The notes below the pieces were generated by a model. The model had not been told where the DNA came from and did not search any database. It worked only from the letters and a program-made list of their open reading frames with translations. From Planctomycetota bacterium (lineage in GTDB: Bacteria; Planctomycetota; MHYJ01; WSZJ01): a stretch of DNA of 64,000 nucleotides. The DNA lies in the NCBI GenBank assembly GCA_038060895.1, contig JBBTCT010000024.1:160001-224000 (forward strand). The letters run 5' to 3'. Of the stretch, positions 31,779 to 48,271 are shown one piece after another. Position numbers and translations under genes: made by a program. Position 1 is the stretch's first letter. Each line of letters opens with the position of its first letter.

Positions 31779-34700
31779 CTACTTGTTGCGGCACTCGATG
31801 CGCCACTGGCCGAGCTTACTCGGAAGGTCGGTGCCGTCCGAACCTACGATGAAGACCTTTCCGAGGCCCCCGGACGTCGTGGTGACGGCCCAAGCCCTGT
31901 CCGGCATGCCAATAATGGGAGGGATCGCTGCGCGGTGTTCATAGACGGTAGCGGGGGCGGGATCTGTAAGCACCCAGACGTAAGCACCCGTCGTAGAGTC
32001 GTAGATTTTCCACATCTCAGGAACTCCCGGCACGCCGAACGAGGGATCGCTCTCAATCAAGCCTGGTTGCGCGCCCTCCGTGTTGAACAGCGAATCGAAG
32101 GCGAAACTGGACGACTTCCGCTTCTCGATTCTCCACAGCAGGTCGTCGAGGGGCGCCCTGTTGCTCCCGGCGATAAAGAGCCTGTTTGTATCGAGCACGA
32201 GTTGGCCGCATCCAAAGTCTGCAACCGAGGGCGTGCTCGGAGGCAAGTAAGAACCCAGGAGGTACATCGAAGCGGCACCGACCGGAGACTCGGCGGTCGC
32301 CACGTCGACCTTCAGCAGCGCCCAGTTGTCAAATCCCGGGAAAATAGACGGAGGAACCCAGTACGGGTAGTCGATAGCAGTCCTGTAGGTTGTCAGCGCG
32401 TACAGATGAGTCCCATCCGTGACGACCGAGTGGACCGAGTCGTCCGAAAAGGTAAAGGTGCCGGTGAAGACGTCGTACAGCGTGATGCCGTTGTCTTTGC
32501 GATACGTCCCTTGTCCGCTGAAGCCGAATCCTGGGTTAACTGACTCTATGTAGACATCGAGGCTGCCATCCGAACAGCGCCGCTTCTGCAACATCGAGTT
32601 TCGCGTTGAGCCGGTATCGCCGACCGAGTCCTTGAGCCAACCTCCAATGATCAGGAAGTCTTCTGATCCATCGGCGATCGTGACACACGTGGCGGCTGCA
32701 GGGCAATCTGTCGTAGGCAACGAATGGGGTTCGATGTCATTCCAAAAGCTGCTCTGGGTGACGACCCAGGATGATGCGCCCGTCGTCGCGTCCAGCTTCT
32801 CTACCCGTATGTTGGACATGCCTGCGATGTCATCATCCCCTACGGCGTAGAGGAAGCCATCGGTGTGGAGGGCGATGTCCCCTGCCTTCCCGTTTGCGGT
32901 CGTGGTCGTGTACACGCCGTCTACGTCGAAGGCAGTATCGAGCACGCCGGTGGTAAGAACGCGCTTTTCGACGCGCCAATCATAGGATCCCGCAGTTGTC
33001 TCCTGGCTGCCAAACAGAAACATGTGCGTGGCGTTCACCAGGATCTTTCGTGGAATCATCTCGATTGCGCCTGCCGGATTAATTTTGAGGAGCCCGGTCC
33101 CGTCCGGCCAGGATCCGACCAACGAGCCGTCTGACAGCATCCTCCGCTCAACCCGCCAAGTGTTGTTAACCCCTGTCCCCATGCCTCCTTCGTAGCCGAA
33201 GACGTACAGGAAGCTACCCTCGGTGGCGACAGAGCGAGCTTCGTCCTTCGTGCTGCTACCCGGTTCGCTCTGGATCACGCCGCCGGTGCCGAAGCCGGTC
33301 ACCAGCAGGCCGCCGGTGCTGTCCGAGAAGATCGTGTTGTTCGACAAGGTGATCGATCCGCTGGTGGCGATGACGCGCCCCTGCACGACCGAGTCGGAGC
33401 CGAGCACGATGGCCGTGGGCGACGCAGCCGTGGCCAGAATCGTTCCCCTGAAATTAGTGCTGGCCCCAAGGCTGAATGTGTCGGAGATCCAGATGACGTT
33501 GTCGGCGTTGGCGCCGCGTTCGTACTTGAACTGAAAAACTCCCAGGGCGCTGACGATGTCCAGCGCTCCGGAGTGCCTGAAGATCCAGACGCTGCCGGGG
33601 TCGTTTCGACCGTCCAAGGTGATGGGTCCGTCCACCTTCGGATCTCCCGTGAACGCAAATGAGTCGATCAGGTAGACGCCGCCGGGCAACCGCTTGCCCA
33701 GCAAGGTGTACCCCTTCAGGCTGTAGTCCGCGTCGCGCGCGAGAGCATCTACCTGGGCCAGCAAAGCGGCGGCAACAGCGTCGTCGGGGGGGTCCGTCGC
33801 CGTGCCGCTGTCCGGGTAGAAGGTGCCGGGTGCCTCCACGACGAACGGTGGCGTACCGGGATCCATGATCCCGGTAGCGACGCCAGCGCTTCCCTTGATG
33901 AGCGTATCGCCGGTGTTCGTCATCGAGTCGTAGGCGAGCGCCGCGAAATTCGCGGGGGCGTCTGGATCAGAGGCGGAACCGAGCGCCAGCGTGCCGGTTT
34001 CACCGATGGAGATCGACCCGTAGACGTTCGTGGCGTAGTACCACCAGCCGTAGTAGAGCGACGCGACGCGCCCGGTCACATTGCTGCCGGCTCCGATCTG
34101 GACGTCGCCGTTCACGAGCACGGTGCCGATAAAATTGGCGTAGCCCGTCACGTCAGGATCTTTCCAGGGAGGAGACTTCTCGTCATCTCCGATGAATGCG
34201 CCCGGCATGTTGTCGTAGGTGTAGCCGTAGGGGCCAAGATCCGGTCCTGTGGACCGGTAGTCTCCTGACGGGATCGCGACTCCCACCTGCCACCATACGT
34301 TTTCGGGAAGCGCTCCCCCGGTCATCACAACCTTGGATTTGCCCCTGGCGTAAAGGTTACCGGGAATCTGGAAAATCCAGGTGTCCGTGGAGCTGCCGCT
34401 CAAGGTCAGAGTTCCGCCACCCAGGGTGACATCTTTGTGGATGTGCCCTGTCACGGGTTCGACGATCGTGGAGTCGAATTTATATATACCTGCGGTCAGG
34501 GTTTCCCCGGAAAGGTCCAGGTCGGTACGGGTCACCGTCGGCGTCCGACCGGCGAGGTCGGTGTAACAAAGGGTGGCGGCCAGCATGGCAGCGGCGTAAC
34601 CGGTGGGGTCGCCCGAGGGAAACGCCGTTGAACCGGAATAGGAGTAGTGTTCATCGCCGAAAATCGTGGCTTCCTTGAAGGTCGGCCACACATAGCCGCC

Positions 34701-35057
34701 GAAACCATCAGAGGTGTAGCCATCAGTCATCACCGACGAGTAGTCCTCGTTGTCGTAGTCGCCCCAGTTCGCGCCCACGTCGCCCCAGACCACCGTGTCC
34801 TTCTTGTGGTAGAGGTAGTAGTAGGCCAGCGCCGCGTAGAAGTAGGCGACGCCGAGGTCCGGTTTCGGGGGAGCGGGAGGTGGAGGGATGAGGACCGGGT
34901 CTACCGCGGACTTGCTGCCTGACCCGGAAGAGCCGCTCCCGGAAGAAGTGTTTCCGGATGAGGATGATCCGCCGTCGGAGCTCCTCTTGCACCCAGCGAA
35001 AACCAGCGAGACCAGCGCGAGGACGAGGACCGGCAGCACGTACTTTTTGGAAGTCAC
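31779..35057 (-). CDS. Large lipoprotein with two DUF3494 (ice-binding-like) domains and a C-terminal repeat/beta-propeller region
   Basis: Lipobox FAGC, Ser/Gly linker, WIFQI..ENVWWQVG and WIFR..DNVIW DUF3494 signatures, repeated WRVE(K/R)R..G motifs. Confidence 0.78.
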   Translation of the reverse strand: MTSKKYVLPVLVLALVSLVFAGCKRSSDGGSSSSGNTSSGSGSSGSGSKSAVDPVLIPPPPAPPKPDLGVAYFYAALAYYYLYHKKDTVVWGDVGANWGDYDNEDYSSVMTDGYTSDGFGGYVWPTFKEATIFGDEHYSYSGSTAFPSGDPTGYAAAMLAATLCYTDLAGRTPTVTRTDLDLSGETLTAGIYKFDSTIVEPVTGHIHKDVTLGGGTLTLSGSSTDTWIFQIPGNLYARGKSKVVMTGGALPENVWWQVGVAIPSGDYRSTGPDLGPYGYTYDNMPGAFIGDDEKSPPWKDPDVTGYANFIGTVLVNGDVQIGAGSNVTGRVASLYYGWWYYATNVYGSISIGETGTLALGSASDPDAPANFAALAYDSMTNTGDTLIKGSAGVATGIMDPGTPPFVVEAPGTFYPDSGTATDPPDDAVAAALLAQVDALARDADYSLKGYTLLGKRLPGGVYLIDSFAFTGDPKVDGPITLDGRNDPGSVWIFRHSGALDIVSALGVFQFKYERGANADNVIWISDTFSLGASTNFRGTILATAASPTAIVLGSDSVVQGRVIATSGSITLSNNTIFSDSTGGLLVTGFGTGGVIQSEPGSSTKDEARSVATEGSFLYVFGYEGGMGTGVNNTWRVERRMLSDGSLVGSWPDGTGLLKINPAGAIEMIPRKILVNATHMFLFGSQETTAGSYDWRVEKRVLTTGVLDTAFDVDGVYTTTTANGKAGDIALHTDGFLYAVGDDDIAGMSNIRVEKLDATTGASSWVVTQSSFWNDIEPHSLPTTDCPAAATCVTIADGSEDFLIIGGWLKDSVGDTGSTRNSMLQKRRCSDGSLDVYIESVNPGFGFSGQGTYRKDNGITLYDVFTGTFTFSDDSVHSVVTDGTHLYALTTYRTAIDYPYWVPPSIFPGFDNWALLKVDVATAESPVGAASMYLLGSYLPPSTPSVADFGCGQLVLDTNRLFIAGSNRAPLDDLLWRIEKRKSSSFAFDSLFNTEGAQPGLIESDPSFGVPGVPEMWKIYDSTTGAYVWVLTDPAPATVYEHRAAIPPIIGMPDRAWAVTTTSGGLGKVFIVGSDGTDLPSKLGQWRIECRNK

Positions 35058-36585: not shown

Positions 36586-38382
36586 TCACGGTTCCGTGAT
36601 ACCAGCCATCGCGCGACTGTACCAGATTTCGATGCCGCCGATCATCCAGAGTGGCCACATCAATCGGCTTTGGTCCATCCGGCCGGCGGCCTCTTCCCTG
36701 AGGAATTCGCGGTAAAGGGAGGCGGCGGGGCCCGTGTTGGTCCAGCCCCGGGCAGCGGTTGTCAGCGACTGAAAGCTCCGCTCGCCGCCCAGCGCCCGGA
36801 ATGCTTCCGCAAACAGGTGCGAGAAATCCGCTTTGGTCCTGCGGTCGCGGACGGCCGGCGGAAGCAAGTCGCGGAGTCCGCCGCGGAGGACGAACTTTGT
36901 GGCCGCTCCGCGGCGGAGCTGCTCCCGCGGAACGGTCAGCGCGAACTCAATCAACCGGCGGTCATAAAACGGCATTCGCAGCTCGAGCCCGTGCCAGGCC
37001 ATGTCGCGTTCGTCGATTTCCAGCATGTGCTGTCCCCAGCCCGTTCCGTCGATGGCGAAGCGCCGCGCAGCCTCGGCGCCCGGGACGAGGGGGCGATGGC
37101 GATCCTTTGCGTGGATGCGGTCGACAAGAGAGATGCGGCGGGCGAATTCCGCGGAGATCCAGGCGGGCGCCTTTCGTTTTCCCATCACTTTCGCAACGGT
37201 CTCGAACGCCGGATGAGGCAGGACAGCGCGAAGAGCCGCGCGCAGGACCCCGCCACGTCGCGGCCCTGGTCCCATCAGCCATTCGTCGGAGCCGATGCCG
37301 GTCAGCACCGCCCGGAATCCGCGCTTTCGCGCGAGCGGGCGGATCGGGAGGGCGACCGCCGAGTTCGGATATCCGGGAAAGTCGAGCGTCCTTGCCGCGG
37401 ACGCGGCGTAGATCCCCGGGTCCGCTGCGGCGGCCTCCTCAAAATTTGCCTGGAGCCCCCACATAGACACCACTTCATCAATGTAGGCCCGCTCGTCGCA
37501 CGGACGCCCCGGAAACGAGAGCGAGAACGTCTCGAACCCCTTCCCCTCTGCCGCGCCCTCCCTGAACAGGGCCTGCGCCATCCCGACGACCGAGCTGGAG
37601 TCCAGTCCGCCGCTGAGGTCCGCACAGACCGGCGTATTGCTGCGCAGGCGGCAAAGCACGGCGGCCCGAAAGAGTTCGCGGAATCGGTTTCCATACTCAA
37701 GATCCGAAGCGAGACCAGAGACGTCGGAGACACTCCGCGGGGCGTACTGCCGCGCACGGACTCCCGCCGCGTCCGCCACGAGCACGTGAGATGGCGGCAA
37801 CCGCAGCACGCCTTTCCAGACGGTCTCTTCTCGGTGGGTGACGGCGTTGGCGAGGAACTCGCCGATCACTCCTTCGTTTGGCTCGCGGGGGAGGCCGGCG
37901 TCGCCGAAAAGGGCGCCGGGCTCCGAGGCGAAGACAAGGCGGCCGGCGTGGACCGCGTACGCGAGCGGACGCGCTCCGATCCAGTCTCGGGCGCAGAGGA
38001 GCCGGCGCCTCGCTGCGTCCCAGTACGCGAAGGCAAAGTCGCCAAGCAGCCGTCCCGGGGCGTCTTCACCCCATTTCTCGCAGGCCAGCAACGCGAGCTC
38101 GGCGTCGCCGTCGCCGGCCGGCGCAAGCGCTTTGCGCAGTTCGTCGCGATTGTCCAGGCGTCCGTGAAAGACGATGCCGAGCTTTCCCTTCACGAACGGC
38201 TGGTGTTCGTGCACGGCCTCGGGAGTCGTGTGCATCGCCCGGAAGCCGAGAGCGACGGAGCCGTCGATCCAGGTCGCGCAGCCGTCCGGGCCGCGGTGCG
38301 CGAGACGCGTGAGAATCGATCCGAGAGGCTCCGGCCCCGCCGGCCTGCCGTCGAAATAAAAAACTCCGGCTAGCCCGCTCAC
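36586..38382 (-). CDS. Lasso peptide cyclase (asparagine synthase-related, C protein)
   Basis: AsnB fold with Ser replacing the catalytic Cys (MSGLAG), LSGGLDSS, GIGSDE, RMPFYD; adjacent to precursor and RRE. Confidence 0.88.
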   Translation of the reverse strand: MSGLAGVFYFDGRPAGPEPLGSILTRLAHRGPDGCATWIDGSVALGFRAMHTTPEAVHEHQPFVKGKLGIVFHGRLDNRDELRKALAPAGDGDAELALLACEKWGEDAPGRLLGDFAFAYWDAARRRLLCARDWIGARPLAYAVHAGRLVFASEPGALFGDAGLPREPNEGVIGEFLANAVTHREETVWKGVLRLPPSHVLVADAAGVRARQYAPRSVSDVSGLASDLEYGNRFRELFRAAVLCRLRSNTPVCADLSGGLDSSSVVGMAQALFREGAAEGKGFETFSLSFPGRPCDERAYIDEVVSMWGLQANFEEAAAADPGIYAASAARTLDFPGYPNSAVALPIRPLARKRGFRAVLTGIGSDEWLMGPGPRRGGVLRAALRAVLPHPAFETVAKVMGKRKAPAWISAEFARRISLVDRIHAKDRHRPLVPGAEAARRFAIDGTGWGQHMLEIDERDMAWHGLELRMPFYDRRLIEFALTVPREQLRRGAATKFVLRGGLRDLLPPAVRDRRTKADFSHLFAEAFRALGGERSFQSLTTAARGWTNTGPAASLYREFLREEAAGRMDQSRLMWPLWMIGGIEIWYSRAMAGITEP

Positions 38383-41300
38383 CTCCGTTCCTTCTCAATC
38401 TTCTCGATCTGGGTCATGTAGCGCAGCGCCCGGGCTTCCGCTGCATCGATCGCCAGGGCCTGCGCGAAGCACTCCTTCGCGGGGGTCAACTGTCGATTCA
38501 TGAAGTGAAACTCCCCCTTCATTCCCCAGGCCGTCGCGTTTCCCGCGTCAACCTGGACCAGCCGCTCGAAGCACTCCAACGCGAGCGCCCCCTGGCTATC
38601 CATGGCGGCGGTGACCGCGAGGTTGGCCAGCACCGCGGCTTCGTCGGGCCGCAGGGCCCTTGCGCGACCGAACATGTCGATCGCCGCCTTGATGTCTCCC
38701 TTTTGACGAAGCAGCGCCCCGAGGTTGAACCATCCGTTCCAGTGCTCGGGGTCCAGCTCGACCGAACGGCGCAGCCGCGTCAGCCCTTCATCGACGCGCC
38801 CCAGCGAGGCGAGCGCGAGCCCCGCGTGGTAGTTGGCCATCGCCGAATCCGGATCCGACAGGAGCGCCTTCTCAAACCACTTGAGAGCTTCGTCGTCCCT
38901 GCCCAGCTGGTGCGCGCGGAAGCCGCGCAGGTCGAATTCGTGCGCACCGGTTCCCTCGTCGCCGAAAGTCTCGAGGAGCGCCGCCATTTCCGCTTCTGAA
39001 ACCGCGCGGCGGAAGACGCGGCGAAGGGCTCCTTGGGCGTCGAAGACGAAGGTGGAGGGGAGCGGGGCGTCGCCGCCCGGGCCGAAGAAGGACCTGAGGA
39101 GAGGTTCGTCGGCGAGGAACTGCGGGTAGGAGACGCCGGCGGCCTGCACGGCGGCCCGGACCGCGTCGAGGTCCTTTGACTCGACGCTCACGCCCGCAAA
39201 CGTGGCGCGGTCGCGGAACTTCCCCGCGAGCGCGACGAGCGCCGGCATTTCCTCCTTGCAAGGCGCGCATGTGGGCGACCAGAAGTTGATGACCGCAGGC
39301 GTGCCTTTGGTTGCAAGCGCCGCTTCCCCGCCCTCGAGCCGACGCGCGGTGGCGTCGAACGAGAACACCGGGCGCGAACGCGGCGGCCCGGACGTCCATC
39401 GGGGCAGCTCGCGCGCTTCGAATCCCGGGCGGCCGTGACGGATCGTGACGAGACGGTCTGCGGGAACGCGTTCGACGGTCTGGACATCTCCGCCGGGCCA
39501 GGTCACCGTCACCCGTTCGGCCAGGGCGGCGTCGCCGAGACCGAAATGCAGGTCGAACGGCACCTGCGTCTGGAAACCGTCGGTGAGGCGCGTGTAGTCC
39601 TGCTGCGTGACGCCGCCGGCCTCGACTTTCACGAGCGCGCCAAGCGCGTCGGCAAGCCCGCGCTGCCCTTCAAGTCGAAGACGCAGAAATCGTCGCGCCG
39701 GAGAACTGTTTTCGACGACGCGCAGTCCCTGGAGCGAGAAGCACAGGAGGTCGAGGTCGCCGTCGCCATCGACGTCGGCAGGCGCGGCGGCGCGGCCGTC
39801 GTCGTCGAAGTCGAGACCGCAGACGTAGGCGGCGTTGGGATAGGTCTGCGAAGGGCCGTCCGCGTTGAAGAAAAGGAAATCCCGCTCGTACCCGCTCCAG
39901 GAGCCGCGGAACGTGGGGTCAACCCTGGCTTCGTAGTTGGGCTGTACTTTCTTCGACTCAAGGGCGCGTGCGTCGGCGGCGACCTGCCGCCAGAAGTGCG
40001 TTCAGAAGTCCGGGGCGTTCGCGTCCGAATTCGTCGTGAACCCGTTGGCAACCCAGATCTCGCGATCGCCGTCGTTGTCGATATCCAGGAACAGGCAGGC
40101 CCACGCCCAGTCGGCCCAGTTCAGGCCGCGGGCCACGGACGTCTCGCGCCATTCCCCCGATTTCGGGTCGCGCTCGTAGAACTGGTTTCCCTGGGCGAGC
40201 AGGAGCCCCAGCCGGCGCATCTCTGGCCCGAGGTTATCCGCGAGAAGAAACACGCGATTACCCGCATGGCTGTACATGTTCGAGAGGTACATCCCCCACG
40301 TCCCGTCGTTCTCCCAGTCCGCGATCGTCACGCCCATCGTGTAGTTCGTGTCGGCGTTGAAAATGTGCGTCTTCGCGTCGGCAAAACGCCCCTTGCCGTC
40401 GTTCTGCCACAGGTGATTCGGTCCGAAGTCGTTTCCCTCGAACAGGTCGAGGTCGCCGTCGAAATCGAAGTCCCACCATTTCGCGACATAGGAGTACTGC
40501 GTTCCGGTGATGCCGCGCGCGTCCGACTCCTCCGTAAACCGCAGGCCGCCCTGGTTGATGAACAGGTAGTTGTCCGCTCCGTCGTAGGCCACGACGCGGT
40601 TGAAGGCGTCGTTCTTCGATCCGCGATTCTTATAGCAGCAGAAGAACAGGTCGATGTCGCCGTCCCGGTCGAAGTCCGCCGGCACGATCCCCTGCACCGA
40701 CACGCCCACGGTCCCCGGCGGCACTGCAAACTCCGTCGCGCGCGTCTCCCAGCCATCTCCCTTCCGCACGTGGATCCGCAAGTTCGCCTTGTCCCGCTTC
40801 TCCCCGCTGACGTCGCCGCTCACGAGCTCGTCCACCCCGTCGCCGTCCAGGTCGAGCGCCACGTACGACCACGCCACATCGTCCGGCTTGAGGGCCGGCC
40901 CCTGCCCGCGCACGAATCCGCCCTTTCCGTCGTTCAGGAACAGCGCGAGCTCGCCGCCGCGCACCCAGGCGAGCACGTCCGGAAACTCGTCCCGGTTCCA
41001 GTCCGACACCACCATTCCTCCCGTGCTCGTGATCCCGCGGTCGTCGATCATCGACCGGCGAAGCTCCCGGTTGGCAGCGGACTCATTGAAGTGCAGACCG
41101 GTTTCATCCGTGATGTCGATCCACGGCGCGCGCCGCGCATCCAGGCGCGTCCCCTCGACCCATTCCAGCCGCTCGACCTGCCAGGTTTTTTCCGCCGTGG
41201 CCACCCACCGGCTGCGCACCGTTCCGGAGAGATCCGCCCGCATCCCGTCGGTCTTGCGCCCGGCGAGCTGGAAGTGCAGCACGACGTAGGCCGATCGAAG

Positions 41301-41759
41301 GCCGGGATCGAGCAGGAACTCAAAGGGACGCCACGTCGTTCGCTCGACCGCGACCCAGTCTTTCAAGTGCTCGCGAATCGTCGCGACGAATGCCGCGGCA
41401 TCTCGCTCGGGAAGTCCTTCAGCTCCGTACTCCCGGATTCCCATCCAGGCGTCGGGAACCTCCTTGCCATCCTGGGGCGCCGGAAATTTGCCGCGAAACC
41501 CCGGAGTGAGAGCGGCCTTTGCCTTCTCCCAGTCCATCTCGCGAAGGCCCTTCATGAAACTCCGCTTGATCGAACCGTTGGCCGTCTCGTAGGTCGACTC
41601 GGAAAGTTCGACGTCCTTGACAAAGTCCGCCGGGCGCACGAACGGCCGTTCTCCTTCGAGAATCGGCACGCGTTTCTTGAGGACCACCGCGGTAATCAGC
41701 GCTGCAATCCCCACTACTGCCGCGATGACCCCAGCGCCGCGGGCGCTTCGTCGTGTCAT
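38379..41759 (-). CDS. FG-GAP/CRTAC1 - ASPIC/UnbV - thioredoxin(CxxC) - TPR protein with one in-frame TGA (candidate selenoprotein, 1126 aa)
   Basis: ORFs 40002-41759 and 38379-39632 share a frame; manual translation of 40001-39633 has no stop and continues family motifs (SWSGYERD, DVDGDGDLD); WSPTCAPC motif; TPR repeats. Confidence 0.75.
39975..39991 (-). promoter_or_regulatory. Putative bacterial SECIS hairpin
   Basis: GGCGGC-AGGUC-GCCGCC stem-loop starting 10 nt after the in-frame UGA. Confidence 0.6.
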
Positions 41760-42222: not shown

Positions 42223-43752
42223 ATGGAACGGATCCCCACAACGAAAAGACCAAGCTCCGATACGGGAGATCCGCTTGCCTACCCGGATCCCGAACTCGTG
42301 GTGGCCTTGGTCTACCCTACGGGTACGGACGGCGACGGTTTGCGTAGCAGGATCACAAGGACGCTTCGACGCTTCTCATTCGGAGTCGATCCGATCCGCA
42401 TCAGCGAGATCATCGAGAAACGATGCGGGCGGAAAATTCCAAAACGGCCGCTTCCGGATCGGATCGAGGCGCTGATCCACGAAGGAGATCAGCTCTGTCG
42501 GCCTCCGGATGCTGCACAGCGAGGAGCCGAGTCGAGGGAGAAGATTCTGGCGCTGGCAGCAATCTCAGAAATCGCCTACAACCGGTCCTTCTCCGACGGG
42601 TCCACACCGCAGGCCAGACCAAAGTGCGCCCACCTGGTTTCATCGCTGAAGCGACCGGCTGAGTGCGAAGAATTTCGGCGAGTTTATGGGCCAGGACTCT
42701 TCGTGATCGGAGCGAACACTCCGGTACCGAATCGCGTGAAACGACTCATGCGCGGAGGGGCGAGTCTCAATCGCGCCCGGGCGCTGGTTGCTCGGGATAT
42801 GGAAGAATCCGCCGCCGGGGGCCAGAAGCTCCAGAAGACGATGCAGATGGCTGATGCGTTCATCCTGCTTGGCGACGGAGACTACGAGAATGCTGTCGAT
42901 CGGGTGTTCGACCTGATCTTTGGAGCACCCTTTGTCACCCCGGATCGTGATGAGCATGCGATGTTTCTCGCGTTTTCGGCCTCGTTGCGTTCGGCCTCGC
43001 TTTCCCGGCAAGTGGGGGCAGCGCTTCTTGACGACAATGGAGAGCTCATCGGAGTCGGATGCAACGATGTCCCTGCGTTTGGCGGCGGTCTCTACTGGCC
43101 TGGTCCGGGAGATAACCGGGACCATTGCTCTTCAGGCCTGGACACGAACAGGAAGGTCCTCGGTGAGATCATCGACGACGTCGCGGATCGCCTCGACGTG
43201 AGACGTGAGACTGTTCGCGCCAGGCTCAAGGGCGCTCCCATCGAAGACATCACCGAGTTCGGACGCGCCGCGCACGCCGAAATGGAAGCGATCCTTTCAG
43301 CGGCACGCTCGGGGGCCAGGCCCCGGGGTGGAACGCTGTACACCACGACGTTCCCTTGTCATAACTGCACCCGACACATCATTGCTTCAGGTGTGAGACG
43401 AGTCGTGTACGTGGAGCCATACCCTAAGAGTCGCGCTCGCGAGTTGCATGCGGATGCGGTCTGGTAGACGGAATTTCAGGGTCAGCCCACCGCAAAGAGC
43501 CGAAAAACGAGGGTAGTGTTTGAGCCATTCGTCGGGATCGGGCCTCGGCGATACTTCGATCTCTTCTCCGTGAGCCACGGTTCAGGAGAGCAGTTGCGCA
43601 GAAAAGCAGAAGACGGTGTTCGGAAGGTGGACTGGAGGAGAGAGGGAGCAAGAATCAGATGCCCGATGCTTCCGAATTCCTATCTTGGCCGTGAAGAGGT
43701 GGCTGCCAAGCGTTTCCTGGCGTTGCAGCATCAGTCGAGGATGCCCTCATGA
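42223..43752 (+). CDS. Anti-phage dCTP/dCMP deaminase (AvcD-like, P-loop-like plus deaminase domain) interrupted by an in-frame TAG at 43465-43467
   Basis: SLKRP.E, LSRQVGA, HAEMEA, TTFPCHNC, YVEPYPKS; after the TAG the same frame gives FEPFVGIGPRRYFDLF. Confidence 0.82.
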
Positions 43753-45859: not shown

Positions 45860-48271
45860 TCACGGCCCGGCCGCTTCATCCCGTAACCGCGCCGCCTCGG
45901 CATCCCCCGGCACGGACGCGAGGTAACCGCGAAGCACCTCGACCGCTTCGGCGCGTCTCCCCGCGCCGATCAACGCCCGCGCGAGGATGATCACCGCCCC
46001 CCGCCGGCCCGGCTGGGACGCCAGCGCGGCCCGCGCGTCGTCGATCGCGGGCTGCCAGAGCTTTTCATTGAGGTAGAGGTTCGCGCGGCGCGTCAGCAGG
46101 AGCGGATCGCCGGGGTGCGAGGCCAGCGCGTCCGTCACCGCCTGCGCGGCCGCCAGCCGGTCGCCCTGCGCTTCCAGGAAATCCGCGACGAGGCACGGGC
46201 CCTCCATGTTCGCGGGGTCCAGCCTGGCCGCGATCCGCGCGTTCACGAGCGCGGCGTCCCACGCTTCGAGCTTGCCCCACGCCCGCGCGGCGGCGGCATG
46301 CGCGGCCGCGTCCGACGTCACCGCGAGCCGGGCCTCCCGCACCGTCGCCTCCAGCCCCCACTGCCCCGCTTCCCCGAACGCCTCCGCCAGCGCGTCGTAC
46401 CCCGGCGCGTTTTCGCGCGACGCCGGCACCAGCCGCCAGAACACCGCCGCCGCTTCCTCCCACCGCCCGCGCCGCGCCAGGAACACCGCCAGCCTGCCGC
46501 CCGCCGCGGGCGTCGGCATCAGCGCTTCCCACTCCACCACCGGTCCGTCGATCCCCAGCCGCTCCAGCGCTTCCTCCACCGTCCCCGGCTCCCCCTCGAA
46601 CGCCCGCCGCAGACACACCCCCGCCGGCCCGCGCTTGCCCTCTATCCAGAGCCAGATCCCCGCTTCGATTTGCGTCTCCGGATTCGCGGGCCACAGCGAA
46701 GCGGCGGTCTCGAAGCGTTTGGCGGCGAGGTCGAAGTCGTCGCGGCGTTCGGCGGCGCGGGCGAGGTACCAGGCGGCGTCGGCGTCGCAGGGGGAGAGGC
46801 GGAGGATTTTGTGAAGGGCGAGCTCGGCGGCGGCGGGGTCGAGTTTCGAAGCGGCGCGGGCCTTGTCTTCGGGGTCGAGGCCTGCGAAGGCGAGGGTGGC
46901 GGCGAGGGCAAGCGTGACGAGGGCGGCGGCGGCCCAGGCGGCGCGCGGGAAGGGGCAGGAGGCGCTGGAGAACGCGGGGGCGAGGCCGAGCAGCACGGCG
47001 AACAGGAGGCCGACGCCCGTGATGCGCAGGTCGAAGTCCACGAGCGCGTGCACGGCGGCGGCCAGCACGGCGGCGACGGCGGCGCTCGCGGCCGCGCGCT
47101 CCGCGCCGTCCAGCGTCGGCAGGCCGCGCACCGCGCGCACGCCCCAGAATGCGAGCCCGGCGACGAGGAGAAGCGCCCACGCGGCGCCTCCTTCGAAGAG
47201 GGCGTTCACGTACTCGCTGTGGGCGTGCCGGAACTGGCCGGGGAGTGACGGCGGCTGGAACGGGCGGAAGGCGCGCGGGTAAGAGCCGAGGCCGAAGCCG
47301 AGGACCGGCTGGCGCGCGGCGGCGGAGAGCGTGGCCTTCCAGCAGACGACGCGCGTGTCCTGGGTGAGGTCGCTGCCTTCCATGCTTTCGAACCGCTCGA
47401 TCAGCGGCTCGGCGTTGGCGGCCCAGATCGTCACGCCCGCGGCGAGCGCGAGCGCGGCGCCGCCGGCGACCGCCGCGCCGCGCGTCCGCCGCTGCCACAC
47501 GAACGCGAGCGCCACTACGCCGGCGACGGCCGCCAGCGCACCGCCGCGCGACCGCGACAGGACGATCGCGGCCGCGAAGAGCGCGGCCGCCAGCGCCCAC
47601 GACAGCCCCGATTCCAGGAGCGCGATTTTCCCCGCGTCGCGCCGCCGGGACGTCCACCGCCCCCACGCCGCCCCGGCCGCGAGCGCGACCCCCATCGCCA
47701 TCAGCCCCGCGAAGTTGTTCCGGTTCACCAGCGTCCCGCTCGCGCTCTCCAGGTCGAAGCGCTTTCCGAAAAACGGCAGGGTCTCGAAGCGAAATCCGGT
47801 CTGGGCGACCGCGTAGGTGGCCTGGAGGGCGAGGACGACGAGGATGGAGTTCAGCGCCAGGCTGCGTCGCAGGCCGGCCTGCGTAAGCCGGAGGGTCAGG
47901 AGTGCAGCGAGCGCGTAGGCGGCGACCTGCGCGGCCTGCCGGACCGTGAGGAAGGCGTCGGCGGTCCCGGGGCCCGCGCCCGCGGCGCCGTGCGAGGCGC
48001 GCAGGGCGGAGGTCCAGGGGAACAGAAAGCCCAGGCCGGGCGCAAGCTGGAGGACGAGGAGGAGTGCGACGCCGGCGAGGAACGCGACGGCCGGGCGCGA
48101 GAGGAGCAACGGACCGGGGAGCAGGAACATCGCGGCGACGTTCAGGCACGCCATCCAGGCGGCGAGCGTCGCCACCGCTGCGGGGGAGACGCCGCCGTAG
48201 ACGGCCAGCGAGCCGGCCCAGCCGAGCAGGCCGGCCAGCCAAAGGGTTGAGACGCGCGTCGAGACCGACAT
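45860..48271 (-). CDS. O-antigen ligase family membrane protein with C-terminal TPRs
   Basis: GTLVNRNNFAG, SRSRGG, GFGLGSY, HAHSEY, HALVDF; helical repeats. Confidence 0.88.
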   Translation of the reverse strand: MSVSTRVSTLWLAGLLGWAGSLAVYGGVSPAAVATLAAWMACLNVAAMFLLPGPLLLSRPAVAFLAGVALLLVLQLAPGLGFLFPWTSALRASHGAAGAGPGTADAFLTVRQAAQVAAYALAALLTLRLTQAGLRRSLALNSILVVLALQATYAVAQTGFRFETLPFFGKRFDLESASGTLVNRNNFAGLMAMGVALAAGAAWGRWTSRRRDAGKIALLESGLSWALAAALFAAAIVLSRSRGGALAAVAGVVALAFVWQRRTRGAAVAGGAALALAAGVTIWAANAEPLIERFESMEGSDLTQDTRVVCWKATLSAAARQPVLGFGLGSYPRAFRPFQPPSLPGQFRHAHSEYVNALFEGGAAWALLLVAGLAFWGVRAVRGLPTLDGAERAAASAAVAAVLAAAVHALVDFDLRITGVGLLFAVLLGLAPAFSSASCPFPRAAWAAAALVTLALAATLAFAGLDPEDKARAASKLDPAAAELALHKILRLSPCDADAAWYLARAAERRDDFDLAAKRFETAASLWPANPETQIEAGIWLWIEGKRGPAGVCLRRAFEGEPGTVEEALERLGIDGPVVEWEALMPTPAAGGRLAVFLARRGRWEEAAAVFWRLVPASRENAPGYDALAEAFGEAGQWGLEATVREARLAVTSDAAAHAAAARAWGKLEAWDAALVNARIAARLDPANMEGPCLVADFLEAQGDRLAAAQAVTDALASHPGDPLLLTRRANLYLNEKLWQPAIDDARAALASQPGRRGAVIILARALIGAGRRAEAVEVLRGYLASVPGDAEAARLRDEAAGP

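Follow-up and report, generated by a model that had tools for sequence, protein, structure and literature searches.

In this study I describe a planctomycete gene that very probably belongs to a large, multi-phylum and previously unannotated selenoprotein family, as judged from sequence comparisons, and that is absent from the accessible text of a catalogue of 119 prokaryotic selenoprotein families. The gene occupies positions 38379-41759 of the minus strand in a stretch of 64,000 nucleotides (the window, positions 160,001 to 224,000 of contig JBBTCT010000024.1, assembly GCA_038060895.1), and its reading frame contains a TGA at 40004-40002 that is very likely a selenocysteine (Sec) codon, specifying residue 586. 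An earlier reading of the window without database searches (the sequence-only reading) had placed a Sec at this residue, which now finds support in the conservation of the TGA column, in a downstream hairpin that is conserved and covaries, and in the presence of the Sec machinery in the genome. According to domain and structure predictions, the family combines an N-terminal anchor, a CRTAC1-like FG-GAP propeller with an UnbV_ASPIC domain, a TlpA/ResA-like thioredoxin (Trx) domain and tetratricopeptide (TPR) repeats. Sec would be inserted in the way familiar from other bacterial selenoproteins; what appears to be new is the protein family and the place of the Sec within it.

An in-frame TGA at one alignment column

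Translation of 38379-41759 (-) gives one frame of 1126 codons, followed by a TGA stop at 38379-38381, and the sole internal stop of this frame is the TGA at 40004-40002 in the context NAPDF*THFWRQV. The list of open reading frames (ORFs) splits the gene into 40002..41759 (585 residues) and 38379..39632 (417 residues, with a GTG start). That these two ORFs are one frame broken by a single TGA, as first suspected from the letters alone, is borne out by the translation, and the ORF boundaries likewise agree with the claim that the 123 codons following the TGA (39633-40001) are free of stops and of the potential start codons ATG, GTG and TTG. The in-frame TGA in the window gene is thereby confirmed as an observation.

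A six-frame search of 41 related genomes, with the 350 residues around the TGA site as query, found matches in 26 of them, and nearly all strong matches carried exactly one TGA. A hidden Markov model (HMM) was built from the core, and for each match I noted which codon aligns with the Sec column (HMM state 114); TGA was present in 64 of the 72 unique matches among these relatives. The second set of sequences consisted of 80 named contigs out of a scan of one genome per species, and here TGA occupied the column in 33 of the 77 matches on named genome contigs, the named TGA loci belonging to the Planctomycetota (13), the Verrucomicrobiota (15), the Acidobacteriota (3, including Candidatus Multivorans) and others (3). 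Pooling both sets, removing duplicates and applying a threshold of at least 150 bits left 98 unique genes with a TGA at exactly the same alignment column, from three phyla and many assemblies, and 21 non-TGA homologs known at the DNA level. All matches cross the TGA in a single frame. That 98 non-identical homologous genes share a TGA in this column is far beyond chance, and it answers the question, left by the sequence-only reading, of whether homologs keep the TGA across the junction. The conservation extends to distant members: the identity of TGA forms to the window gene drops to approximately 27-30%, and in the most divergent ones the flanking motif is altered (DLXAEFNTGAV, DGXAPLWQAVV) while the TGA is retained. 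A phylum-wide search with a natural homolog that has Gln at this column (P0005) as query, in which three candidates per genome were scored, yielded one non-TGA locus only (L173), and the non-Sec DNA controls used below were therefore drawn from a metagenome scan.

Seven TGA paralogs are present in this genome: besides the window gene itself, contig C36 has five and contig C30 has one. Relatives contain tandem arrays of up to five. Four of the paralogs in this genome stand back-to-back in a row (G000:C36:38057-51389, +), with another at C36:19447-20493 (-), and in one relative (locus L050, G002:C253) five are found within approximately 17 kb. These tandem arrays suggest a recent amplification of the CRTAC1-like Sec family.

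A single in-frame stop in a metagenome-assembled genome (MAG) is often an error, and the TGA could for that reason mark a pseudogene or a mistake in sequencing or assembly. I consider this extremely improbable, as the same codon is found in the same column of the 98 genes described above. Moreover, a contig from an independent study (record 13, run X3) covers 39959-40135, including the TGA and the hairpin discussed below, with 0 differences; a look at the sequencing support for 40002-40004, which had seemed advisable at the outset, thus returns the same TGA. Compared with the ortholog L021, the window gene shows 70, 68 and 216 differences at codon positions 1, 2 and 3 upstream of the TGA, and 83, 59 and 211 downstream of it. 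Because the codon-position pattern is equal on both sides, the downstream segment appears to be under the same coding constraint, by purifying selection, as the upstream segment, which is not the pattern of a pseudogene.

Alternatively, the TGA may be a true stop, in which case a 585-residue N-terminal protein would be made and the downstream part would be translated separately or not at all. Public records look as if this were the case. Using the 585-residue upstream ORF as query, 222 database proteins were found at E <= 1e-40, and all 119 of those examined, including the window's own, have D-[FYW] at their very end, directly ahead of the TGA, with a median length of 586; hence 118 entries besides that of the window stop exactly at this point. 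However, the absence of a start codon in the 123 codons after the TGA, the invariable continuation in the same frame and a purifying selection downstream equal to that upstream make a true stop very improbable. Full-length homologs with Gln, Asp or Glu at the column furthermore run unbroken through the TGA region, and in a structure model of P0005 an alpha-helix (residues 589-604) begins there. Given the conserved column, the coding constraint and the independent contig, the pseudogene, error and two-gene readings can be set aside for practical purposes. The TGA-terminated entries, mostly from Planctomycetota MAGs, go by the names 'VCBS repeat-containing protein', 'ASPIC/UnbV domain-containing' and 'hypothetical protein', and the closest of them among the matches listed is 80% identical to the window ORF, in keeping with a planctomycete origin of this genome. 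The Sec family is thus systematically mis-annotated in public records as truncated proteins.

In run X5 and in the RNA run X10, none of the contigs was found to span the TGA itself. One metatranscriptome contig of run X10, 152 nt in length, is identical to 39552-39703, just downstream of the TGA, and includes the first possible restart codon at 39632. It is at best a weak hint of transcription, with DNA carry-over being possible.

A downstream hairpin and the selenocysteine machinery

In bacteria, the classic case of a selenocysteine insertion sequence (SECIS) is that of Escherichia coli fdhF. In the window, the TGA is followed by a spacer of 10 nt (40001-39992) and then, in line with the sequence-only reading, by a 17-nt hairpin at 39991-39975 (-), consisting of a 5' arm (39991-39986), an apical loop AGGUC (39985-39981) and a 3' arm (39980-39975). 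The stem comprises 6 base pairs, all G+C, and 7 if U39992-G39974 is included. The consensus that Zhang and Gladyshev modelled for the bacterial SECIS (bSECIS), which the accessible text of PMC13188914 summarises, calls for a loop of 3-9 nt, an upper stem of 4-16 bp, a G among the first two nucleotides of the loop, a UGA-to-loop distance of 16-37 nt and a minimum free energy of -7.5 kcal/mol or lower. The window hairpin agrees with this published consensus throughout, with its 5-nt loop, 7 bp, spacing of 16 nt, dG of -12.5 kcal/mol and a G at the second position of the loop, which is followed by G-U. It thus resembles bacterial SECIS elements in its location in the coding region just after the UGA, in its upper stem of 6-7 bp and in its 5-nt loop, but differs in that its spacing is at the lower limit of their range.

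In order to score the whole family, I used a simplified, un-bulged version of the bSECIS criteria, which was passed by 70 of the 98 Sec genes and by 1 of the 21 non-Sec homologs. A perfect stem of at least 6 bp was present in 84/98 Sec genes vs. 4/21 non-Sec genes, and a GU in the loop in 81/98 vs. 5/21. The effect of the downstream peptide was controlled for by comparing 39 Sec genes of the window's subgroup (group A) with 18 non-Sec genes whose product has the same WRQV peptide. The stem is fully canonical, with six pairs out of six, in 34 of the former and in none of the latter (34/39 vs. 0/18), and the fraction of paired cells in the stem columns is 97.9% vs. 54.6%. Covariation, which was yet to be looked for when the hairpin was first noticed, is indeed seen: pair 18-26 is G-C in 16, A-U in 17, G-U in 4 and C-U in 2 of the 39 group A genes, a compensatory change. 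Column 18 coincides with the third, silent base of an Arg codon, where Sec genes avoid the stem-breaking CGC (2/39) and non-Sec genes favour it (12/18). In a second subgroup (38 genes) the stem is offset by one nucleotide and is intact in 33, with one pair occurring in four canonical forms, and in two further subgroups, with unrelated downstream peptides, the UGA is followed at a distance of 11-16 nt by a hairpin whose loop is of the GGU(C) type. Hairpins are therefore found at the same place in four subgroups with differing downstream peptides and are lacking in non-Sec genes with the same peptide, which argues that selection acts on the hairpin itself and that it is no by-product of the peptide.

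Overall folding energy was also tried as evidence and was rejected, as it did not separate Sec genes and controls; the position-specific stem tests were used instead. Likewise, a picker of minimum-energy hairpins often chose other structures and was replaced by fixed-column pair counts and criteria-based scoring. A search of Rfam at a permissive E-value returned nothing relevant around the TGA site.

The genome encodes the complete set of components needed to read UGA as Sec, so that the search for selA, selB, selC and selD to which the sequence-only reading pointed finds all four. The tRNA-Sec scores 71.7 bits (cut-off 47) and is called SeC, with anticodon TCA, by ARAGORN. Also above their curated cut-offs are selA, with 541 bits, selB, with 344 bits in two stretches, and selD, with 364 bits. 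The selD gene (locus L018, G000:C2:48628-49548, -) itself contains one in-frame TGA, in the context SSCAG*ASKLGP and with a hairpin downstream, and therefore the selenophosphate synthetase of this genome is itself a selenoprotein. In related genomes, selA accompanies the TGA form in 15/15 cases, and the TGA form is found in 0/5 genomes without selA; in other phyla, selA is present in 4/5 genomes with the TGA form and in 3/5 with only non-Sec forms, and its presence thus did not tell the two apart. Taken together with the hairpin, the presence of the Sec machinery would fit a scheme in which SelB, loaded with Sec-tRNA(Sec), binds the apical loop, with its GGU, of the hairpin that begins 10 nt downstream of the UGA, and Sec is inserted at residue 586 to give a single protein of 1126 residues.

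The residue at the selenocysteine column in other homologs

The homologs that lack the TGA mostly do not show the residue that would be expected of a selenoprotein family. Of the best 120 full-length database homologs, 53 have Gln at the column, 15 Asp, 9 Glu, 6 Ser and 5 Cys, other residues being scattered, and the residues tolerated at this position across homologs include Q, D, E, S, H, N and A. Homologs with Cys (DYC-TQYW, some of them named 'enediyne biosynthesis protein E4') make up a distant clade that has neither the Trx nor the TPR part; L129 is a further Cys form with the same motif and the codon TGT. Since non-TGA homologs mostly have Gln, Asp or Glu and Cys is confined to this distant, Trx-less clade, the column does not appear to be a classical Sec/Cys pair. 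In this point the sequence-only reading, which asked for TGA or Cys at the column, needs adjusting.

Full-length Gln/Asp/Glu homologs (e.g. from Saltatorellus ferox and Granulicella aggregans) are annotated as 'tetratricopeptide repeat protein' or 'FG-GAP-like repeat-containing protein'. They share domain order and length with the window protein, are 40-50% identical to it in the core and read PDW-x-TYYWRQV around the column. They differ in having a sense codon at the column, no intact hairpin (0/18) and a Trx-like domain with either no CxxC or only CxxS.

Several observations weigh against reading the TGA as Sec. The prevalence of Gln, Asp and Glu at the column in full-length homologs, with Cys in only 5/120, is unusual for a selenoprotein. 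The simplified SECIS test is failed by 28 of the 98 Sec genes. The 71 nt around the site in the window fold no better than shuffled sequences (z = -0.64, with 45 of 200 shuffles folding as well), and the mean dG of this region is -12.7 in Sec genes vs. -12.1 in non-Sec genes; given this z, the signal is one of a conserved specific hairpin, not of general stability. The RNA evidence amounts to the 152-nt contig, from an RNA library possibly containing DNA. In addition, selA is common in this class anyway (36/41 genomes), and because of this its co-occurrence with the TGA form discriminates weakly, and in one genome with a divergent TGA form, G236, selA was not detected. The latter, the genome of locus L119, is a bin of 12.7 Mb labelled 'Proteobacteria bacterium', whose TGA form reads DTXPEYWRVVM and which may be mixed or incomplete.

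These points bear on the possibility that the TGA is recoded, but not to Sec, either by hairpin-stimulated readthrough with a near-cognate tRNA (inserting e.g. Trp, Cys or Arg) or by insertion of another residue via the Sec machinery. The support for Sec is at the sequence level, the Q, D, E, S, H, N and A found at the column indicate that the chemistry of the site is not strictly Cys-like, and G236 combines a TGA form with an undetected selA. However, this genome has a complete selABCD set, the hairpin matches the SelB-type bSECIS consensus in both spacing and loop, and selA is present in every one of the related TGA-form genomes. There is also no obvious benefit of a stop codon in 98 genes where a sense codon would do. 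I therefore regard non-Sec recoding as improbable, and Sec at residue 586 as the far better explanation.

A FastTree of 212 core sequences, displayed with midpoint rooting and without an inferred root, places the window's Sec clade of 39 members as the sister of a Gln/Asp/Glu clade of 65 members. In the remaining half, the backbone is lined with Sec forms; nested among them are single Glu, His and Ser forms, a 27-member clade of mostly Gln forms, and a 9-member Glu/Asp/Asn group that itself holds one Sec form, while the Cys clade is outermost. The Sec state changes at least 11 times on this tree. In the half with the Sec backbone, repeated loss of Sec is the simpler reading, although I do not claim this direction with confidence.

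Two single loci deserve mention with respect to such changes. L060 (G008:C104) has Glu (GAG, at approximately 6047) and adjoins a Sec paralog. Its CxxC (CRPC) is retained and its hairpin (GCGACG/GGUCG/UGUCGC) is intact, as if Sec had been replaced very recently. Conversely, L180, on a metagenome contig, is a lone TGA form (codon at approximately 1895) nested among Asp forms, with a Trx-like domain without CxxC, and could represent a nonsense mutation or a re-gain of Sec.

When the 98 Sec genes are compared with 114 non-Sec genes, the columns that best separate them include Y496, H498, A499 and N501 of the motif NMYSHAGNR (residues 494-502, 40254..40280, -), where the non-Sec consensus is S, E, E and M, respectively. 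This Sec-form-specific motif may line the Sec site. No Cys column of the core was found to track Sec in the same comparison.

Architecture, possible function and place among selenoproteins

The window protein begins with a hydrophobic segment (residues ~9-27, 41679..41735, -), which, as far as its translation tells, is likely a signal anchor. The FG-GAP_3 repeats (102.1 bits, cut-off 26.9) lie upstream of the UnbV_ASPIC domain (residues 705-772, 39444..39647, -; Pfam 62.9 bits, cut-off 23.4), with their best stretch at residues 430-487, and loops of the Ca-binding type DxDxDG are present. These are followed by the TlpA/ResA-like Trx-fold domain (residues 807-926, 38982..39341, -), which scores above the cut-offs of AhpC-TSA (43.8 bits), Redoxin (30.7) and Thioredoxin (26.3), has 3or5 and ResA as its best solved relatives and carries the motif CAPC at residues 831-834 (39258-39269). 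At the C-terminus, TPR repeats (residues ~950-1116, 38412..38912, -) match TPR_2, TPR_1, TPR_11 and others above Pfam cut-offs. No NCBIfam family was over its cut-off for the read-through protein, the scores being 38.8 bits for ResA (cut-off 170), 34.2 for TlpA (230) and 23.9 for NF041054 (WAxxUGC_long; 300), and at the equivalog level NCBIfam did not place the Trx domain in ResA, TlpA or StoA. It would thus be related to the ResA/TlpA proteins without being one of them. The segment at residues ~30-215 (41115-41669) has no Pfam match; its counterpart in P0005 is modelled as a confident helix-plus-sheet domain, with a predicted local distance difference test score (pLDDT) mostly above 90.

For structural comparison, the natural Gln-form homolog P0005 was modelled (AF2) with 77 database relatives, resulting in a mean pLDDT of 93.2 and a predicted template modelling score (pTM) of 0.92. 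The best solved match of this model is murine CRTAC1 (9etn_A; E 6e-22, TM 0.74 on target), which is also the sole solved relative found by sequence outside the TPR and Trx parts. The window protein accordingly resembles the CRTAC1/ASPIC/UnbV family in its FG-GAP_3 and UnbV_ASPIC matches and in the fold predicted for P0005, but adds to it the Pfam-less N-terminal domain, the TlpA-like Trx domain and the TPR repeats. The Sec position is in a segment of ~45 residues between two conserved propeller motifs, ~245 residues upstream of the CAPC. In the model of P0005 it corresponds to Q589, predicted to be the first residue of the 16-residue alpha-helix 589-604, and a nucleophile at the N-terminus of a helix is typical of redox-active Cys and Sec sites. 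Considering the N-terminal hydrophobic segment, the lipobox-like N-terminus of P0005 (LLSGC), the TlpA/ResA-type domain and a DsbD_TM protein encoded in this genome, I infer that the window protein works outside the cytoplasm.

The presence of Sec and the state of the Trx motif go together. The 98 Sec forms comprise 79 with CxxC, 8 with a Trx-like domain without Cys, 7 without a Trx match and 4 that are truncated, whereas the non-Sec, non-Cys forms comprise 4 with CxxC (L060 among them), 29 with one Cys (mostly CxxS), 61 with no Cys, 12 without a Trx match and 2 that are truncated; the Cys forms are without a Trx domain in 6/6 cases. Hence CxxC is found in 79 of 94 complete Sec genes vs. 4 of 112 non-Sec genes, a distribution that points to a Sec/CxxC redox couple, which predicts this very pattern.

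The most likely function, which I propose tentatively and from sequence features, is that of an extracytoplasmic Sec/CxxC selenoenzyme, an oxidoreductase on a CRTAC1-like scaffold. By attacking an oxidised substrate, for instance a peroxide, a sulfoxide or a disulfide, its selenolate would be converted to a selenenic acid or a selenylsulfide. The fused CxxC would resolve this intermediate and would itself be re-reduced via a membrane protein of the CcdA/DsbD type. Gln/Asp/Glu homologs with a decayed CxxC would then be redox-dead derivatives. Because Sec forms run along the backbone of one tree half, a Sec or Cys enzyme may be ancestral there, and the Gln/Asp/Glu homologs may have arisen repeatedly as such derivatives. 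More tentative still is the proposal that this would be the first enzyme family with Sec in a beta-propeller, in which a catalytic selenolate at the start of a helix is cycled by a fused TlpA-like CxxC outside the cytoplasm.

Not all observations agree with such a couple. Some Sec forms lack the CxxC or the entire Trx domain, and the placement of the Sec at a helix start derives from a model of P0005 and not of the window protein. When corrected for relatedness, the association comes down to 7 independent pairs, of which ~2 agree, 0 disagree and ~5 tie (sign test not significant), so that the link between Sec and CxxC largely reflects shared ancestry and the co-occurrence is taken here as descriptive. 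The suggestion of the sequence-only reading that the CAPC domain recycles the Sec consequently stands halfway: the raw co-occurrence is striking and speaks for it, and the corrected test was of low power, informative pairs being few.

A different role for the column would be that Sec ligates a soft metal or a chalcogen substrate, with the Gln/Asp/Glu homologs using this place to bind a hard cation, e.g. Ca2+. The Ca-binding-type loops of FG-GAP propellers are indeed found in the window protein, and the spectrum of Q, D, E, S, N, H, C and U at the column is typical of ligand positions. However, a ligand site leaves unexplained why CxxC is kept with Sec and decayed without it, and a place at the start of a helix is the arrangement of redox-active Cys and Sec. 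I thus consider a ligand site unlikely and prefer the Sec/CxxC oxidoreductase.

Among known selenoproteins, the TlpA/Prx-like ones (UxxC; 'UGC-containing TlpA family' in the accessible part of Table 1 of PMC13188914) come closest, sharing with the window protein a TlpA/ResA fold of the extracytoplasmic type, and the latter is probably, like these, a thiol/selenol redox protein. They differ in that their Sec is inside the Trx motif, whereas the Trx motif of the window protein is the all-Cys CAPC and its Sec is in the propeller.

Immediately downstream, a gene resembling glutamine-hydrolysing asparagine synthases (36586-38382, -) begins within the selenoprotein gene, 4 nt ahead of its end, and overlaps its stop, and this overlap suggests that the two are co-transcribed. 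Other genes in the vicinity encode an ice-binding-like protein (31779-35057, -), a deaminase-domain protein (42223-43467, +) and a Wzy_C/TPR protein (45860-48271, -).

A scan of approximately 44,000 groundwater MAGs with deep-Sep has reportedly been made by Deng et al. 2026 (Cell Rep 45:116760), a study cited by a 2026 review. In the literature found, nothing links selenoproteins with FG-GAP, VCBS, ASPIC, UnbV or CRTAC1, although Deng et al. may list the family. Looking for a paper on a CRTAC1 structure likewise brought up nothing of use. These terms are absent from the accessible full text of PMC13188914, PMC12013277 and PMC2398784. The 2026 catalogue lists 119 prokaryotic selenoprotein families, mostly small Trx-fold proteins, and its accessible text contains nothing resembling a CRTAC1-like propeller family, nor is Deng et al. 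2026 on any row of its Table 1 as accessible there (PMC13188914). The initial statement that CRTAC1/UnbV proteins are not an established selenoprotein family is in agreement with this. According to the same text, SECIS-independent searches depend on Cys/Sec pairs (PMC13188914), and the rarity of Cys relatives may explain why pipelines built on such pairs would miss this family.

Selenoprotein families are few, and the one described here is large and multi-domain, with its Sec in a fold for which no link to selenium was found in the literature. It is also abundant, as indicated by the seven paralogs in one genome, the tandem arrays in relatives and the 222 database proteins at the E-value given above. 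If the reading of a Sec-bearing propeller is true, it would show that searches by Sec/Cys pairs can miss a major selenoprotein family. The CRTAC1/ASPIC/UnbV superfamily is not known to have a biochemical function. If the Sec/CxxC couple is real, it would provide a testable biochemical handle and the first catalytic clue for CRTAC1-like proteins, and it would raise estimates of the selenium demand of these widespread bacteria.

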